Source: Candidatus Omnitrophota bacterium
GTDB taxonomy: Bacteria; Omnitrophota; Omnitrophia; Omnitrophales; Aquincolibacteriaceae
Length of the DNA stretch: 64,000 bases
Direction: 5' to 3'
Assembly: GCA_903856085.1 (NCBI GenBank)
Contig: CAIOAT010000042.1
Span: forward strand, 4,947 to 68,946
The translations under genes and the position numbers were made by a program. The notes under the pieces are model-generated. The model was not told the DNA's origin. It worked only from the letters and a program-made list of their open reading frames with translations, and ran no database searches. This document shows, in pieces, positions 33,379-43,389 of the stretch; the stretch's first letter is position 1; each line of letters begins with the position of its first letter.

Positions 33379-33409
33379 GATTACTTCCCGATGCACTTTA
33401 AAAAAAGAG

Positions 33410-33484
<75 letters not shown>

Positions 33485-35819: not shown

Positions 35820-36724
35820 GATGTTTTCTCGATCACTCTCAGTTTGGCGCTTCTCGCTCTTGGATTATTCAATATTTCAGAACGGTTTGCAACCATTGGT
35901 TTGCGAAAAATTAAATTCCCACGTTCTTCGTCGTCCCATTTCCGGAACTGTTGTTTCACAATCCGGTCCTCAACCGAATGAAAGCTGATAATGCCAAGCC
36001 GTCCGGCTTTCTTCAGATGCTCAAACGCGACCGTCATGCCTTCCTTGAGCGCCTCTAGCTCATCATTCACCCCTATCCGGAGAGCTTGAAACACTTTAGT
36101 CGCCGGATGACGCCGCGCCCATGAAGGTCTTTGCCCTTTCTTGAATCGCATATGGGGGGGCAGCGCCTGTTCCAATGCCTGGTTGAGATCTTCGATAGTC
36201 TGGATGGGTTGTTGGCGCCGCCTTTCGACGATCACGCGGGCAAAACGCCGTGATTTGTGCTCTTCTCCGTAGTGATAAAAAAGATCCGCCAGCTCAACCT
36301 CGGACATTTGAGCAAGCAGCTCTGAGGCTTTAAGACCGACTTCCGGGTTCATCCGCATATCCAATTCCCCTTCCGTTTGGAAACTGAAACCGCGCTTCCC
36401 ATCCGCCAACTGTTCCGACGACGTCCCGATATCCAATAGCACCGCATCGAATGCTGCTACTTCCAATCCCGAAAAGACCTTCTTCAAATTCCTGAAGTTC
36501 TCGTGTACCAACGTAACCCGCGGATCTCCTCGAAACAACATCTGACATCTTGCGATTGCTTCAGGGTCCTGATCAAATCCGATCAATTTCCCCGAGGGAC
36601 CTATTTTCTCGAGAATCGCCTCCGAGTGCCCCCCACTCCCGAGCGTCCCATCCATCACCACAGCACCGGGTCTTAACGCTAAATGCTCAAGGACTTCTTG
36701 TAAAAGAACGGGCTTATGACGCAA
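35816..36724 (-). CDS. rsmH: 16S rRNA (cytosine1402-N4)-methyltransferase
   Basis: HKPVLLQEVL...VMDGTLGSGGHS...GIISFHSVEDRIVK MraW motifs. Confidence 0.9.
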   Translation of the reverse strand: MRHKPVLLQEVLEHLALRPGAVVMDGTLGSGGHSEAILEKIGPSGKLIGFDQDPEAIARCQMLFRGDPRVTLVHENFRNLKKVFSGLEVAAFDAVLLDIGTSSEQLADGKRGFSFQTEGELDMRMNPEVGLKASELLAQMSEVELADLFYHYGEEHKSRRFARVIVERRRQQPIQTIEDLNQALEQALPPHMRFKKGQRPSWARRHPATKVFQALRIGVNDELEALKEGMTVAFEHLKKAGRLGIISFHSVEDRIVKQQFRKWDDEERGNLIFRKPMVANRSEILNNPRARSAKLRVIEKTS

Positions 36725-37052
36725 AACTAAGAATCGCCTCTTCTTCCGTCGAATAACTTTCCATCAAACCATTGACCCCGATCATCTGGAGGGTCCTTTC
36801 TACTTCAGGACGCAAGTTGCACAATTTGATGTCCCCTTTTTGTTCGCGCACCTTACGCAAGCGGTCCACCAAAATACCAACACCCGCCAATTCCACATGT
36901 TTCGTATCTTTCAGATCCAGCAAAAGACGCTTGTGGTTCCTGTTGAGCAAACGGTTCATACGACCTTTCATTTTGATCATGCTAAGAGCGTCGAGATCTC
37001 CGTTGAAACGCAACACGTCCACTCCAACCTTCGTCCTGGCGTGATAGACCAT
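36714..37052 (-). CDS. STAS-domain protein (anti-sigma-factor antagonist-like) inserted between mraZ and rsmH
   Basis: SpoIIAA-like fold: LRFNGDLDALSMIKMKG...LLLDLKDTKHVELAGVGILV. Confidence 0.65.
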   Translation of the reverse strand: MVYHARTKVGVDVLRFNGDLDALSMIKMKGRMNRLLNRNHKRLLLDLKDTKHVELAGVGILVDRLRKVREQKGDIKLCNLRPEVERTLQMIGVNGLMESYSTEEEAILSFAS

Positions 37053-37526: not shown

Positions 37527-37595
37527 CCCACTCTCTACCACTTTCCCCCACTTTATTATCGGCGGTAGTATATCTTTCCCTTAATATCGTGTCAA
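37527..37595 (-). promoter_or_regulatory. mraZ promoter (TTGACA-17 nt-TATACT) followed by three direct GTGG(G/T) repeats at 10-11-nt spacing (MraZ operator boxes)
   Basis: -35 at 37595..37590, -10 at 37572..37567, repeats at 37552..37527 (AGTGGGggaaAGTGGTagagAGTGGGaacc). Confidence 0.55.
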
Positions 37596-37764: not shown

Positions 37765-38520
37765 CTAATTTTCGAAATAGAGAATGCGGGAGCAGTTCTC
37801 ACAAACAATAATCTGTTCACCCAAGCGGATTTCATTGATAAGCTGAGGACGCAGCTTCATCTGGCACGCAGCACAAACCTCACCGCTCACAACGGCGAGA
37901 GCAAGCCCCTGCTTCTTCAGAGCGATCCGGCTGTAAAGCTCTCCGAGCTCGGGCGGCAATTGCGCAACGGATTCTTCGCGTTGCTTTTTTAAATCCGCAA
38001 GGCGCCCCTGCAAGCTCTTTTCCTGACCGACCATTTCGTTGTCTCGGTCCTGAAAAGACTTGGTGATAGATGCGAACTTTTCTTTTTCTTTACGAGCCTC
38101 TTCTTTAGCCGCATCCACTTCATCAAAAATATGGATAATCCCTTCCTCGAGAAGTGAATTATCGGCCTTGAGCGAAGCGATCTCTTGTTGCAGCGCGGCG
38201 TATTCCTTATTCGTTTTTATCTGCGATAATTGCCCGTCAAGTTTTTTGATCTGAATCTCTTTTTGAGCAAGCTCCAGCTCCTTTTCCTTCAGTTTCAATT
38301 GAATATCTTTGAGGGATTTTTCCAACTCATTAGAGCGAATCTTTTCGAGCTCCAGTTCGGATTTGAGCTGGGCTCTCTCGGAGGGGATCTCTTCCAGGAG
38401 CAAATGGGCGCGATGAATCTCACTGTCCAATTGCTGGGCTTTTTTCAGGACATCGAGATTCTGGGTAATGGGACTTAGCATAAGTGGGGAGATTATAGAA
38501 GAGATGGCAGACACCATCAA
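37765..38520 (-). CDS. coiled-coil protein with C-terminal C4 zinc-ribbon (COG1579/zf-RING_7-like)
   Basis: Long heptad region; C-terminal CAAC...x17...CENC. Confidence 0.65.
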   Translation of the reverse strand: MMVSAISSIISPLMLSPITQNLDVLKKAQQLDSEIHRAHLLLEEIPSERAQLKSELELEKIRSNELEKSLKDIQLKLKEKELELAQKEIQIKKLDGQLSQIKTNKEYAALQQEIASLKADNSLLEEGIIHIFDEVDAAKEEARKEKEKFASITKSFQDRDNEMVGQEKSLQGRLADLKKQREESVAQLPPELGELYSRIALKKQGLALAVVSGEVCAACQMKLRPQLINEIRLGEQIIVCENCSRILYFEN

Positions 38521-38556: not shown

Positions 38557-39093
38557 TTAGATCCGATGCAAAGCCAGAGACAATTCTGCAAGACCCGAGA
38601 TTTCCTCTGACGTCAGGCGAGCACTCTGCAAAAAACTACTCGAAGAAGCATGACGGTGGGAGGGCGCCTCCCCATCGGGGCTAGGGCTTGGAACATGCAT
38701 CGAAGAAGGGATCCATTTACAGATCCGGACGCCGAGTTTTTCTTTATCCGCACCACAAAGGCCCCCATATTCAAAAAAGCTCAAACGATCACTGAAACCG
38801 TTCATCCTGAAAATCTGCTGGCGGTCCAATTCCGGATAGAAAAGGTAGAGCACCGCGTCATGGGACATCAGCACCCAAAGTTTCTTAATTTCCCGCTGCA
38901 ACTCTTCCACGGAAAAATCCCTCATTGACCGATAAAAGATACGCACCCAAACTTGCGCATCTTTACTTTTAAAAAGAAACGGAGTGCCATTCACATCTTC
39001 GAGAATTACTTTATCCGCGTGAAGCTCCTGAATGGACAAACGAATCGATTGGAATATCTCCTGACGGACAACGCGCTCTTGGGTCGCTATCAT
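38557..39093 (-). CDS. hypothetical protein, third gene of the ParA-CBM48 operon
   Basis: ATG 39093 overlaps the upstream stop by 1 nt; no recognisable domain. Confidence 0.45.
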   Translation of the reverse strand: MIATQERVVRQEIFQSIRLSIQELHADKVILEDVNGTPFLFKSKDAQVWVRIFYRSMRDFSVEELQREIKKLWVLMSHDAVLYLFYPELDRQQIFRMNGFSDRLSFFEYGGLCGADKEKLGVRICKWIPSSMHVPSPSPDGEAPSHRHASSSSFLQSARLTSEEISGLAELSLALHRI

Positions 39094-39902
39094 CGTGATA
39101 CCTCTACGGGGGCGCTGGCCTGCGTTTTTCTCTCTAAAGATTCGATCCAGCCAGCCAGCACGAACTTCGGAAGACTGGGCTTTGCATTCCAATGCTGATA
39201 TTTCAATGGCTCTGTGTGAAGAGCTGCCGAGAAATGCCGCGCAGGGTCTGCAAGGTCCATCCACCCTAACCATCCAAGATGAGTGTCAAGATGCTTGTAC
39301 GCAAAATCCGAGAACCGATCGAAGACCATGACGCCCTTCGCTTCCTCTGCCTTTCCGGACAGAGTGATGTGAAATTCGAGTTGCGGGTTAAGCGCGAGTC
39401 CGATCTTCATCATCTTGTAACCTTCCGTCAAGGATTCAGCCGTGGGTTTTAACAATAGCACCCATTTATCTAGCAGAGAAACGGCCTTTTCAAAGTGAAG
39501 AAGGTGACGATACTCGAAATCCAGAAAAATATCCCGGCTCTGCAGCACTCCCTCGGCTCGAGACGAGAAAGGCTCGCTGATAAGATCGCGAAGCTCATCC
39601 CAATAAAGGCAATACCTCTCAAGACGGTCCCCAAACGATTCTGGCATACCCTGCCCAGATCCAGAAGAAACCTTGGCATAACGCGATAAAACACTGAGGA
39701 GAGAACATGGTTTATCGGGAGACGCGATCTGCGAAGCAAAGAATGTGTTCAAAAGGAGCGAATCTCCATCGCAGTCTGGACTCGAAACCCCCACCACCTG
39801 AACTTCGGGAGAACGAAGGCCCGGGACTTCTCCGGGAACCGCGCTAAAAAGAGGCGAGATATCCCTCAACCCACGAACAAGTTTTTTAGGATCGTCTATC
39901 AT
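39090..39902 (-). CDS. hypothetical protein with ParB-like N-terminal basic peptide (candidate partner/adaptor of the ParA-CBM48 ATPase)
   Basis: ATG 39902 verified, overlaps the ATPase stop (TGATG); N-terminus MIDDPKKLVRGLRDISPLF resembles ParB/partner ATPase-stimulating peptides. Confidence 0.5.
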   Translation of the reverse strand: MIDDPKKLVRGLRDISPLFSAVPGEVPGLRSPEVQVVGVSSPDCDGDSLLLNTFFASQIASPDKPCSLLSVLSRYAKVSSGSGQGMPESFGDRLERYCLYWDELRDLISEPFSSRAEGVLQSRDIFLDFEYRHLLHFEKAVSLLDKWVLLLKPTAESLTEGYKMMKIGLALNPQLEFHITLSGKAEEAKGVMVFDRFSDFAYKHLDTHLGWLGWMDLADPARHFSAALHTEPLKYQHWNAKPSLPKFVLAGWIESLERKTQASAPVEVSR

Positions 39903-41002
39903 CAGGCAAACTCCATGTACGAATCGACGCCGCCATAGGCATTTTCTTTCTGCGTCGGCTGGCTTGGATCCACCTGCCACTCTCCGTCCACAATAAACTT
40001 GTAACGGAACGTCTTGAGCTCCACTGAAATAACCTTCTGCCAAAGCCCATCCTGATTACGGCGAACGAGGGGCTCCGGAACCCAGTGATTGAAATCTCCG
40101 GCGATTTCCACCGAAGACGCTGTTTTACTCGAAAACTGGAAAAGGATCCCATCGGAGATCTGACGCGGTCCAAAATGGTTCTTAAAGACCTGCTCCCAAC
40201 CGAGCTCTTTTTCCGGAAGTTTCCGATTCCAATCTCGCTCCAGATATTCTACTGCGAGATTCAGATAATCCTGAAAAGCCAGCGATTGGGGCGCATATTG
40301 AACAATGCTCTGTCCTGCAGCTGCCGCTTCCTTCAGACTGACATGTTCATGAATGATCGTCGTGAAAAGCCGGTTCTGGAAATGAGCTTTCACTTCGTCA
40401 TAGATCTCGTGAGAAAAATTTACTTCGGAATTGAAAAGCGTCAACAGCGCATGAACGGCAAGAGGCACTTCCCGGCTCCGGTTTACGACCTGGAGGGTCT
40501 CCGAGATCTTCGCAAGCCCGTGAAGTGAGAAAAAAGACGGCTCAACCGGAACCACGACCTCATCGGCCGCATTTAAGGCATTCCAGGTGAGGATTCCGAG
40601 ATTAGGCGGACAGTCCAGAACTACAACGTCATAATGGCGCTGATCTTCACAAATCCGATTCAGAAGATCGCGGAGCTTGAGATGGTAATTGGGCATAAAC
40701 CCGAATTCTTCTTCAAGCGCATTCAAGCTGGCATTACATGGGATAAGATCAAAATCGGGTTTCAGACTCCGAATAACTTGAGAGAAAGGCGGAACGATAC
40801 GCTGAAGCGGGCTTAAAAGATCATAAAGGGTCAACATCCCCTTCTGGGTCTTGATCCCCAACCCAATCGTGGAATGCCCCTGCGGGTCCAAATCGATCAC
40901 GAGAACTTTCTTCTGCAGAAAATTCAGACACGCTGAGAAATTGATGCTGGTCGTGGTCTTCCCACACCCGCCTTTTTGGTTCGCAATAGCGATAATTCTC
41001 AA
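39902..41002 (-). CDS. ParA/MinD-family P-loop ATPase fused to a C-terminal AMPK-beta-like glycogen-binding domain (CBM48)
   Basis: TTG start with AAGGAG SD; deviant Walker A NQKGGCGKTTTS and DLDPQGH; C-terminus VEIAGDFNHW...FRYKFIVDGEWQVDPSQP aligns to the AMPK-beta GBD motif (GSFNNW...YKFFVDGQWTHDPSEP). Confidence 0.8.
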   Translation of the reverse strand: MRIIAIANQKGGCGKTTTSINFSACLNFLQKKVLVIDLDPQGHSTIGLGIKTQKGMLTLYDLLSPLQRIVPPFSQVIRSLKPDFDLIPCNASLNALEEEFGFMPNYHLKLRDLLNRICEDQRHYDVVVLDCPPNLGILTWNALNAADEVVVPVEPSFFSLHGLAKISETLQVVNRSREVPLAVHALLTLFNSEVNFSHEIYDEVKAHFQNRLFTTIIHEHVSLKEAAAAGQSIVQYAPQSLAFQDYLNLAVEYLERDWNRKLPEKELGWEQVFKNHFGPRQISDGILFQFSSKTASSVEIAGDFNHWVPEPLVRRNQDGLWQKVISVELKTFRYKFIVDGEWQVDPSQPTQKENAYGGVDSYMEFA

Positions 41003-41203: not shown

Positions 41204-42157
41204 TCAGTGCTTTTCGAACATAAGAAGCCGCTCGATCGGGACAACCCCTTTAATATCCCCGCTTCGATCGGTCACCACAGCATAGGACTGGCGTTTCTTC
41301 TGAAGCATCAGGAAGGCTTTCGCCAAGGAGGTATCCTCGGAGATAAAAATGGGGGCCCGAAGAAAATCATGAAGCCCTTGAGCATTCTCCTCCTCCCAAA
41401 GGATATCGAAGATATAGACCATCCCCATGACAATGGACGGCACTTCCTCGTAAACGAGCATCATACGAACGTGCGTCTCCCGTGCGATTTTTTTGACATC
41501 CTCGATTTTGCTATGAATATCCACCATCGGGACCTTCCCCACCGGCACCATCACCGAGGAGACATGGATCCGCTCAAAATCAAGGATGGTATGGATCAAT
41601 TTTTCTTCCTGGAGTCCTACGATGCCTCTCTGCGTGCTTTCTTCGATAAGTGAGCGGAATTCTTCCTCGTTCACAAAGATATCCCGGACCACGCCCTGCT
41701 GGAAAGACGGCCAGACAAAGTCGAGCGCCCTGAAGAACAGGATGATCGGCCCGTACAAAACTGCCTTGAGACCTTTAAGCCAAACGGTCTGCCCCAGCAG
41801 AAAAGGGATCGCATTTAAGCGACCGTAATCCTTGGGAACCATTTCCGCGAAAATAATCAGAACCGGAGCGATCACCAACATCACAGCCCATTCGTTGTTC
41901 CAACCGCAATATTCCTTAAAGAAGCAAGTTGCGATCGAGATTGCCGTGACGTTCACCACACTATTCCCGATCAGAATCGCGGTCAGAAAATAATTGGGAT
42001 ACTGTTGAAGCTGCATAATGAACCTGGCTTTTTTATCGCCAGTATCCGCCATTTCACGAAGTCGCAGCTTGTTCGCGGAAACAAAAGCCATCTCAGCCCC
42101 CGAAAAGAAGGCCGAAGCAACCAACGATAAGAAAAACAGGGTCAGAAGACCGATCAT
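41204..42157 (-). CDS. CNNM/DUF21 plus CBS-pair membrane protein (CorC/HlyC-family paralog lacking the C-terminal CorC_HlyC domain)
   Basis: N-terminal DUF21 TM region, two CBS domains, ends after CBS2. Confidence 0.7.
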   Translation of the reverse strand: MIGLLTLFFLSLVASAFFSGAEMAFVSANKLRLREMADTGDKKARFIMQLQQYPNYFLTAILIGNSVVNVTAISIATCFFKEYCGWNNEWAVMLVIAPVLIIFAEMVPKDYGRLNAIPFLLGQTVWLKGLKAVLYGPIILFFRALDFVWPSFQQGVVRDIFVNEEEFRSLIEESTQRGIVGLQEEKLIHTILDFERIHVSSVMVPVGKVPMVDIHSKIEDVKKIARETHVRMMLVYEEVPSIVMGMVYIFDILWEEENAQGLHDFLRAPIFISEDTSLAKAFLMLQKKRQSYAVVTDRSGDIKGVVPIERLLMFEKH

Positions 42158-43389
42158 GGCTTTCTCCTGACCGTCACTTGGTGGATGCGCTGACGGACCA
42201 TATCTTGAATCACAAAATCGAAGTGCTCCGTGCTGAAAATCGCCCCCTTGACAGGAACAACGCCCATTTTTTCAAAAAGATAGCCCCCAAATGTCGTGGC
42301 CTCATCCGCCACAAGATACGAAGAGAAAAAATTATTGAACTCCTGGAGACTGATTTTCCCCTCCACCAAATAGAGATCCTCACCCAAACGCCGGATAGGA
42401 TTCTCAACCTTGGCATATTCATCATAAAACTCCCCGAATATTTCCTCCAAAATATCTTCTTGCGTCACCACCCCGGCCGTTCCCCCAAACTCATCCACGC
42501 AAACCGCAAAACGCTCATTCTTGCTTTGAAATGTTTCCAGAAGAGCATCGATCCGTTTGCTTTCCGGAACAAAGAGCGGCTCCAGCATCACCTGCTTTAC
42601 GTCGGGAAGAGGTTCCTGCAAAAGATAGTTCTGGGACTCAACAACCCCCAGGATATGATCGATCGAACCCTGAAAAACAGGTAACCGTGTAAAGTGAAAC
42701 TTCCGGATAAGTTCTTCATGCCTTGCCGAAGGTTCCTCAATATCCAAACCGATCAGGTCGGTGCGCGGCGTCATGATATCCTTGACCGGCCGTTCACCCA
42801 GCTCCAGGAGCTTTTGAATCATATGACGTTCCTGCCCCCCCAAAACCCCTTCTTCTTCTCCGATTTTCACAAGCACCTTGAGTTCCTTTTCCGAGATCAT
42901 GTCCGATTGGTCGATCTTTTCATGAACAAGAAAGGAGAGAATACGATCTGTAACAAAACGCATCAGGATTCTAAAAGGTGCAAATAACGCGGCGAAGAAC
43001 TTCAGGGGCAGGGACACCCATAGGGCCATTTTGATTCGCGACCGTACTGCCAGGATCTTGGGGAGCATCTCACAGAACACAATCAAAAAAACAGTGAACG
43101 CTGCCATTAACATGCCAAGCCGCGCGTTCCCGAAAAGCTCGAGAACGACAAGTGTGACCATGGCCGTCGCCAACGAATTCACCGTTAAGTTACCGATCAG
43201 AACGGTTCCGAGCGTTTTACGTGGCGCTTGCAAATGTTCAAAGATCCACTTTGAAAGATGAGGGTATCCCTCTTTCAGTTTGCGCTTATCCAACTTAGAC
43301 AGAGAAAAAAGAGCCGTTTCGGACGCGGAAAAGAAAAAGGAGAACAAGAAGAGCACTCCCAAAACGACCCCGTGAAAAGTTGTATTCAT
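42154..43389 (-). CDS. CorC/HlyC-family transporter (DUF21, CBS pair, CorC_HlyC)
   Basis: Full three-part architecture; 4-nt overlap with the downstream paralog. Confidence 0.8.
   Translation of the reverse strand: MNTTFHGVVLGVLFLFSFFFSASETALFSLSKLDKRKLKEGYPHLSKWIFEHLQAPRKTLGTVLIGNLTVNSLATAMVTLVVLELFGNARLGMLMAAFTVFLIVFCEMLPKILAVRSRIKMALWVSLPLKFFAALFAPFRILMRFVTDRILSFLVHEKIDQSDMISEKELKVLVKIGEEEGVLGGQERHMIQKLLELGERPVKDIMTPRTDLIGLDIEEPSARHEELIRKFHFTRLPVFQGSIDHILGVVESQNYLLQEPLPDVKQVMLEPLFVPESKRIDALLETFQSKNERFAVCVDEFGGTAGVVTQEDILEEIFGEFYDEYAKVENPIRRLGEDLYLVEGKISLQEFNNFFSSYLVADEATTFGGYLFEKMGVVPVKGAIFSTEHFDFVIQDMVRQRIHQVTVRRKP

Follow-up and report, generated by a model that had tools for sequence, protein, structure and literature searches.

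The partners of ParA/MinD ATPases are very diverse and often unidentified, so that many of these enzymes remain 'orphan' ATPases. A disordered, basic N-terminal peptide combined with activation of the ATPase constitutes their established general architecture (PMC10241942). In ParB from Myxococcus xanthus, L11, L15, L18, and I19 were found by mutagenesis to be needed for ParA binding, whereas R13, which in the bound helix faces away from the hydrophobic residues, is needed chiefly for ATPase stimulation (PMC12462528). The N-terminus of Helicobacter pylori ParB (1-MAKNKVLGRG-10) includes L7 and R9, which are conserved in bacterial ParBs, while its K5 and R9 correspond to K3 and K7 of the Bacillus subtilis protein (PMC11229316). 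A peptide of similar design is described here for a 270-residue protein encoded next to a ParA ATPase fused to a CBM48 module (ParA-CBM48) in a stretch of 64,000 nucleotides from contig CAIOAT010000042.1 of a Candidatus Omnitrophota bacterium (hereafter the window). The gene (39090..39902, minus strand), defined from its open reading frame and translation, encodes a protein in which a flexible linker joins an N-terminal peptide to a domain of predicted MinD/FlhG fold that has no P-loop. On balance, its product is likely to be the cognate partner, i.e., an ATPase-activating adaptor, of ParA-CBM48, and it is referred to below as the partner.

The translation of the partner opens with MIDDPKKLVRGLRDISPLFS. 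The ParB-like peptide within it (residues 6-19, KKLVRGLRDISPLF; 39846..39887, minus strand) is amphipathic and basic, and would serve in ParA binding and activation, a proposal in line with its conservation, hydrophobic moment, and low model confidence. Set against the composite ParB pattern K-x-L-G-[RK]-G-L-x-x-L-[IL], the partner family reads K6-K7-L8-x-R10-G11-L12-K13-D14-[IVL]15-S16, where K, L, R, G, L, and the hydrophobic position (Φ) agree in residue class and distance; the partner thereby agrees with the N-terminal ParA-interaction motif of ParB at five of six key positions. The spacing is that of L11, R13, L15, and L18 in M. xanthus ParB and of K5-x-L7-x-R9-G10 in H. pylori ParB. Residues 5-15 have the highest helical hydrophobic moment (muH) of the whole partner (0.90). 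On a helical plot, the sector of 180-240 degrees contains L8, L12, I15, and F19, with R10 on the opposite face, at 40 degrees; the basic residues of the peptide are K6, K7, R10, and K/R13. In the AlphaFold model, residues 1-30 are unstructured, with a predicted local distance difference test score (pLDDT) below 50, and are thus predicted to be disordered when unbound, as expected for a motif that would fold upon binding. By chance, L.[RK]GL..[LIVM] would be expected within the 25 initial positions of a single protein with a frequency of about 5e-4, a figure calculated post hoc. The initial annotation had likened this N-terminus to the ParB/Spo0J peptide, and the comparison is borne out, since both residue type and spacing agree with the experimentally mapped ParA-binding motif. 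Its description of a basic segment also stands, but the GLRxxxxL core that it proposed is better written as L8-x-R10-G11-L12-x-x-Φ15 ... L18-F19.

The peptide is kept in nearly all members of the family. A search of 5.8 billion proteins retrieved 114 close homologues of 268-271 amino acids, 110 of them full-length; none contains a Pfam domain and every named source belongs to Omnitrophota. The pattern [KR][KR]L-x-R-G-L-[KR]-[DE]-[IVL]-S-[PS]-[LI]-F occurs near the start of all 110 full-length sequences, and the four homologues in which it is missing are truncated at the N-terminus. When 1.84 billion cluster representatives (50% identity) were searched with a profile at E ≤ 1e-3, the family grew to 269 members, down to approximately 20% identity. 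Among the 150 representatives listed of these 269, nearly all retain the motif, while the sequence behind it diverges beyond recognition. In an alignment of 75 sequences (mean identity 25%), just eight columns are at least 90% conserved, R10, L12, and F19 (96-97%) among them. In the same alignment, residues 11-20 form the most informative ten-residue block of the partner, with 2.69 bits per column as compared to 2.0-2.3 for the best blocks of the core. The linker that follows (residues 20-33; 39804..39845, minus strand) carries 0.53 bits per column, varies widely in length among homologues, has low pLDDT, and would tether the peptide to the domain. Across genome loci, identity ranges from 55 to 95% for the ATPase and from 31 to 86% for the partner. 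As far as these alignments reach, the body of the partner evolves fast and the peptide is frozen. Conservation across orthologues, which the initial annotation had made a test of its proposal, is therefore found at its strongest in the peptide, the best-conserved segment of the partner. A signal peptide and a constraint from overlapping reading frames were rejected as causes of the peptide: the overlap amounts to 1 nucleotide here, and conservation is equal where the overlaps reach 23-38 nucleotides.

The proposed target, ParA-CBM48 (366 amino acids; 41002..39902, minus strand), contains a Soj-type ParA ATPase domain at residues 1-262 (40217..41002, minus strand; Pfam AAA_31, 5e-47). Its closest solved relative is M. 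xanthus ParA (PDB ID: 8ray, E 6e-48), followed by Soj from Thermus thermophilus and H. pylori. K10 and K15 of Walker A and D37 and D39 of Motif 2 are invariant in 24 orthologues, and D130 of Walker B is conserved in all orthologues; with the three motifs intact, the enzyme looks catalytically competent. In M. xanthus ParA, the residues of the ParB pocket were identified by mutation and nuclear magnetic resonance (PMC12462528). According to the alignment to 8ray, the hydrophobic part of this pocket (L150, G151, L152, and L155) corresponds to the Walker-B-proximal NLGILTWN loop of ParA-CBM48 (residues 134-141; 40580..40603, minus strand). When the pocket is mapped onto 24-26 orthologues of ParA-CBM48 in M. 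xanthus numbering, Y81, L150, and G151 are invariant (the latter two in the 25 orthologues that contain this loop) and E82 is Asp or Glu. E117 is Glu or Asp, but Gln in two deep branches. Position 152 is hydrophobic (Ile, Val, Leu, Met, or Phe) in 22 of 24 orthologues, with Thr and Gly in the other two, position 155 carries an aromatic residue (Trp, Phe, or Tyr in place of Leu), and L187 is mostly replaced by Val or Ile. As aligned, ParA-CBM48 retains most, though not all, of the determinants for recognition of a ParB-type peptide.

The two genes are tightly coupled. On the minus strand, the TGA stop codon of ParA-CBM48 (39904..39902) and the ATG of the partner (39902..39900) have one nucleotide in common (TGATG), and a GGAG sequence lies about 10 nucleotides 5' of this ATG. 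At the other end of the partner, its TGA overlaps the ATG of a gene for a 178-residue protein (ATGA at 39093..39090); in view of the stop/start overlaps at both junctions, the three genes are translationally coupled. A longer mechanical open reading frame (TTG at 40043, 317 amino acids) was rejected as the partner gene, since the homologues have 268-271 amino acids and share the initiating Met assigned here.

Scanning a single genome for each GTDB species yielded 22 loci, to which three loci from exact protein look-up and four deep-branch loci were added. The scanned loci belong to Omnitrophota wherever the taxon is named, as do the named members of the deep clusters. Gene order is fixed, as far as the contigs extend, in the 21 scanned loci with upstream DNA and in the three look-up loci: nadD, two CNNM genes, ParA-CBM48, the partner, (the 178-aa gene), a CT398/CdsZ-like Zn-ribbon gene, mraZ, STAS, and rsmH. 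In each of the 27 loci that extend to the upstream gene, the start of the partner overlaps the stop of the ATPase; this sample covers partners of 31-34% and of about 20% identity. The four deep-branch partners (about 20% identity, including those of a sub-branch with a variant peptide) directly follow and overlap the ParA-CBM48 gene. They are followed, as far as the contigs reach, by a third gene (except in L027) and then by the Zn-ribbon gene and mraZ-STAS-rsmH-ftsL-ftsI; their upstream neighbours differ from those of the window clade. In L028 and L029, genes for a histidine kinase, a response regulator, and an HD-domain protein take the place of the upstream block, and the block from ParA to ftsI is unchanged. 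The position of the partner directly downstream of ParA-CBM48 with a 1-nucleotide stop/start overlap, as first annotated, was confirmed from the coordinates. Synteny with the ATPase in other genomes, named at the same time as a point on which the proposal could fail, holds in every locus examined, where the two genes are adjacent and overlapping.

Docking of the peptide on the ATP-bound ParA-CBM48 dimer in the manner of ParB, with stimulation of hydrolysis, is proposed with moderate confidence on the basis of the motif and its conservation, the pocket, and the coupling of the genes. We infer physical binding, ATPase stimulation, a role for the pseudo-ATPase body, and the kind of cargo according to the following scheme. 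The disordered peptide would fold into a short helix upon meeting the ATP-bound dimer. Its hydrophobic face (L8, L12, I15, and F19) might then sit in the cleft of the Walker-B-proximal loop (L135-G-I-L-T-W140), with R10 contacting the Y60/D61/E99 patch of the ATPase. Such docking would result in faster hydrolysis of ATP and turnover of the dimer, comparable to the action of ParB on Soj/ParA. The variable linker would join the peptide to a nucleotide-free MinD-fold body, which could act as a cargo- or scaffold-binding module, possibly for the co-translated 178-residue protein or for neighbouring division proteins. The ATPase itself would be tied to alpha-glucan (glycogen) through its own C-terminal CBM48.

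Several observations weigh against this scheme. Of the four hydrophobic residues that are critical in ParB, I19 is represented in the partner family by an invariant Ser, followed by a family-specific P-L-F, and the equivalent of ParB G12 is variable. A profile of 22 peptide columns, searched against PDB sequences, retrieves no ParB but just a chance match to agmatinase (E 3), the motif being very short; the resemblance is accordingly one of short motifs and not detectable homology. In a deep sub-branch, the peptide reads K-[RS]-[DE]-L-K-[DE]-V-V-x-V-F-L-S-K, without G11 and L8 and sometimes without R10. Three pocket positions of the ATPase differ from M. xanthus ParA (D110 to Ser, Ala, or Val; V116 to Glu or Gln; L192 to Arg or Lys). 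Moreover, R10/G11 of the peptide and D110/V116/E117 of the ATPase show no clean covariation in the deep sub-branch, as L028 with S10 and L029 with R10 both have Gln at position 117. Apart from these points, a phmmer search of the 24-residue peptide against PDB gave no matches, the motif being too short for such a search, and a motif scan detected no ParB in the 64-kb window.

The variant peptide was observed in L026, L028, and L029 and in the proteins P0333, P0339, P0344, P0346-P0348, P0354, P0362, and P0377. It contains neither Gly nor Pro, and its basic residue is sometimes displaced by one position. In the same sub-branch, the linker that precedes the CBM in ParA-CBM48 is about 60 residues longer. 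The sub-branch could represent a natural specificity variant for a peptide-pocket code.

Beyond the linker, the partner consists of an alpha/beta domain (residues 34-262; 39117..39803, minus strand) to which AlphaFold2, Foldseek, and profile searches assign the MinD/FlhG fold of SIMIBI P-loop nucleoside triphosphatases (NTPases). The AlphaFold2 model is a Rossmann-like alpha/beta domain with pLDDT 79 and a predicted template modelling score of 0.77. The best Foldseek match is FlhG (PDB ID: 4rz3, E 1e-8, template modelling score 0.50-0.55), followed by FleN, ParF, Soj, MinD, and Get3, which together represent the SIMIBI/deviant-Walker-A ATPase fold. The profile of the partner family likewise matches FlhG (PDB ID: 4rz2, E 4.8e-5) and FleN over residues 141-217. 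Direct comparison of the closer family profile with its own ParA gave no match; hhalign of the diverse partner alignment against the cognate ParA family gave a weak one, in register (residues 124-183 with 126-185), pairing IFLDFEY of the partner with the Walker B segment VVLDCPP and LLDKWVLLLKPTAESL with AADEVVVPVEPSFFSL. The initial annotation had found no recognisable domain in the remaining 250 or so residues. This is true at the level of Pfam and NCBIfam, which give no match for the partner, but not at the level of profiles and structure: the remote-homology search that it had suggested, with Foldseek on a predicted structure and with profiles, reveals an FlhG/FleN/MinD-type fold in which the P-loop is destroyed.

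The place of the deviant Walker A motif (xKGGxGK[ST]) is occupied by a degenerate loop, SSPDCDGDS (residues 40-48; 39759..39785, minus strand), located in the model between a strand (residues 34-40) and a helix (residues 48-59). D47, at the position of the P-loop lysine, is invariant among close homologues, and the SSPDxDGDS loop of these proteins decays to unrelated sequences in deeper branches. None of the approximately 260 homologues inspected has a Walker A pattern with the signature lysine in the loop that joins strand 1 to helix 1. Since Walker A is replaced in every one of them, the partner is, as judged from alignments and model, a pseudo-ATPase of the MinD/FlhG fold with a destroyed P-loop, and the domain presumably cannot act as an ATPase. 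A C-terminal amphipathic membrane-targeting helix was not detected: the helix at residues 244-262 has a muH of 0.21, and its role as a MinD-like membrane anchor was rejected on this ground. The FlhG-specific DQAxxLR motif is absent from the homologues inspected.

The peptide might instead serve as a docking motif for another protein, its likeness to ParB being coincidental, while the pseudo-ATPase body contacts ParA-CBM48. The 178-residue protein, the CT398/CdsZ-like coiled-coil protein, or a divisome component from the adjacent mraZ-ftsI cluster would be candidates. Such a role is in line with the fact that the CT398-like gene and the start of the dcw (division and cell wall) cluster always neighbour the module, with the failure of the peptide profile to find ParB in an unbiased search, and with the invariant S16-P17-L18-F19 tail, which has no counterpart in the ParB motif. 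It is nevertheless unlikely, because the L-x-R-G-L-x-x-Φ spacing and the placement of Arg opposite the hydrophobic face agree with ParB, the matching pocket is kept in the ATPase, N-terminal basic peptides are the general route of partners to ParA/MinD ATPases, and translational coupling is with the ATPase gene.

The body of the partner invites two further explanations. SIMIBI NTPases function as dimers, and a common fold, together with the Walker B Asp (D128) and the switch-II-like D145, P153, Y162, and K166 in register with ParA, could mean that the partner is mainly a dead subunit, which would sequester or regulate the ATPase by pairing through its MinD-like face with a ParA-CBM48 monomer in a pseudo-heterodimer, its peptide being accessory or acting in cis. 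The signature and P-loop lysines needed for the nucleotide sandwich are missing, however, the partner resembles its own ParA very weakly by profile and is closer to FlhG/FleN, and the AlphaFold model shows no docking of the peptide in cis (pLDDT below 50). As this explanation also leaves the top conservation of the peptide unaccounted for, we regard it as rather improbable. The structural and profile matches, best for FlhG and FleN, would also suit a degenerate FlhG-type regulator whose peptide activates an FlhF-like GTPase of the signal recognition particle type, with the link to ParA-CBM48 being incidental; the parallel with the architecture of FlhG (N-terminal peptide, linker, MinD fold, and C-terminal helix) points the same way. 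This possibility is very remote and is largely refuted by motif and context: the DQAxxLR motif is lacking, none of the loci examined contains flhF or flagellar genes, the Walker A motif that FlhG requires is missing, and the C-terminal helix is not amphipathic (muH 0.21). An ATPase-activating adaptor with a ParB-type peptide remains the preferred interpretation.

If the partner is such an adaptor, the C-terminus of its ATPase might indicate what the system acts upon. Residues 277-366 of ParA-CBM48 (39905..40174, minus strand) form a CBM48/AMPK-beta-type glycogen-binding module (Pfam AMPK1_CBM, 4.5e-11; CBM_48, 9e-7) that matches structures of the AMPK beta CBM at E 1e-7. The equivalents of W100, K126, and W133 (human beta-1 chain numbering), the residues that contact the sugar in AMPK, are kept and are also conserved in deep-branch orthologues. 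The DNA-binding motif of Soj, PRNVRLSE, corresponds to IHEHVSLKE in ParA-CBM48 (region of residues 216-225, with E219 and S222). The equivalent of M. xanthus R235 is never kept (Glu in the window protein). That of R238 is Ser in the window protein, Ser, Ala, Gly, Thr, or another residue in the window clade, and Arg or Lys in three deep branches (L027-L029). The R238E variant of M. xanthus ParA is deficient in DNA binding (PMC12462528). Loss of canonical DNA binding is thus plausible for the window clade, not as a rule for the family, and suggests that this clade may no longer use the nucleoid as a matrix.

The nature of the cargo and a link to cell division are speculative and are drawn from two features only, the CBM and the constant location of the module where the dcw cluster begins. 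It is conceivable, though doubtful, that the three overlapping genes constitute an undescribed, Omnitrophota-universal positioning system of the ParA/MinD type. Its ATPase would be anchored to glycogen granules via CBM48, instead of or besides the nucleoid, and its activator would be a pseudo-ATPase of the same superfamily with a ParB-type peptide; together they might partition storage granules or control their location, or define the division site with reference to the granules, in these very small cells.

The third of these genes (178 amino acids; 38557..39093, minus strand), which overlaps the partner through ATGA, has 122 homologues, almost all of 178 amino acids. The named ones belong to Omnitrophota, save one partial match labelled Deltaproteobacteria, and the gene is confined to this phylum to the same extent as the partner. 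Of the 20 genome loci that reach beyond the partner gene, 18 have the third gene next. In deep branches, a gene for 201-210 amino acids with a similar C-terminal motif (LTSFFYKMGKLSEGEL) occupies its position. The AlphaFold2 model (pLDDT 72) predicts an alpha/beta domain (residues 1-126), a disordered linker (residues 130-157), and a conserved C-terminal helix (SFLxxxRLTxxEIxGLxELS), and Foldseek reports a weak similarity to PD-(D/E)xK nuclease-like folds (NucS/EndoMS, PDB ID: 2vld, E 0.011).

The remaining neighbours were recorded alongside. The CT398/CdsZ-like gene (37765-38520, minus strand), encoding a coiled coil and a C4 zinc ribbon, always lies between the ParA module and mraZ. Since alignments of its homologues begin at about residue 13 and a sigma-70-like promoter match (10/12) is located at 38520..38492, translation probably begins downstream of the TTG listed, and transcription may start from a promoter of its own. 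Upstream of mraZ, a match close to the sigma-70 consensus, TTGACA-17-TATACT (11/12; 37567-37595, minus strand), would fit a promoter for the dcw cluster that is separate from the ParA module and lies downstream of it. The dcw cluster in the window comprises mraZ-STAS-rsmH-ftsL-ftsI only, the usual following mur/fts genes not being contiguous. The gene for an anti-sigma-antagonist-like STAS domain (36714-37052, minus strand) is an unusual element in a cluster that is canonical in other respects; its place between mraZ and rsmH is conserved in every Omnitrophota locus examined. Directly after ftsI lies tRNA-Pro (CGG; 33409-33483, minus strand), followed by an SDR-family gene. Upstream of the ParA module in the window clade, two tandem CNNM/CBS/CorC-type genes for putative Mg/Co efflux (41204-43389, minus strand) precede nadD and proA.

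The locus offers a phylum-wide case in which a ParA/MinD partner is identified from sequence alone, and a ParB-type peptide appears to have been transplanted onto a wholly different body, itself a dead member of the superfamily of the ATPase. This would support the idea of the N-terminal peptide as a portable 'luggage tag' for ParA-type motors. The CBM48 on the ATPase points to a possible new class of cargo (storage polysaccharide) or a new positioning matrix, and the compact three-gene system of an uncultured phylum is open to reconstitution.

Compared to chromosomal ParB/Spo0J (M. xanthus ParB residues 1-20, H. pylori ParB residues 1-10, and T. thermophilus Spo0J R10), the partner has in common an extreme N-terminal, disordered, basic, and amphipathic peptide with Arg opposite the hydrophobic face and K-x-L-x-R-G-L-x-x-Φ spacing. 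Also common are a Soj-type ParA as target, with a conserved Walker-B-proximal loop and Tyr/acidic patch, and a gene directly downstream of parA. It differs in the lack of the ParB/Srx CTPase domain and the parS-binding helix-turn-helix domain (no Pfam or NCBIfam match, and a predicted MinD-like fold instead), and the S-P-L-F extension is specific to the partner family. FlhG (YlxH) and FleN, the closest matches by fold and profile, have the order of peptide, linker, and MinD fold in common with it. The N-terminal peptide of FlhG, a DQAxxLR helix, activates another SIMIBI NTPase, FlhF. The partner differs from FlhG/FleN in having neither the deviant Walker A nor the amphipathic membrane-targeting helix, in a peptide unrelated to DQAxxLR, and in the absence of a flagellar context.

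Similarly to the general architecture of ParA/MinD partners, the gene of the partner is adjacent to and co-conserved with that of an ATPase, and its N-terminus is disordered, positively charged, and conserved. To our knowledge, none of McdB, PomX/PomY, MinE, and ParG has been reported with a P-loop NTPase fold. With these proteins the partner has in common the gene next to the ATPase, the basic N-terminus, and a cargo-specific remainder (PMC10241942), and with PomXYZ also an association with cell-division genes, here by gene neighbourhood only. Its peptide is of the ParB type and not of the types found in McdB, PomX, and MinE, and its ATPase differs from those of the McdB, PomX, MinE, and ParG systems in carrying a CBM48 of its own. 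This module resembles that of the AMPK beta subunit, but the protein to which it is joined is a ParA ATPase and not a kinase scaffold. No ParA-CBM48 fusion or pseudo-ATPase partner is described in the literature searched, although the limited size of that library makes this weak evidence of absence. The locus thus departs from the established principle in three respects: a ParB-type motif is found on a protein that is not ParB, the partner is a degenerate member of the superfamily of its own ATPase, and the ATPase is fused to a glycogen-binding module.

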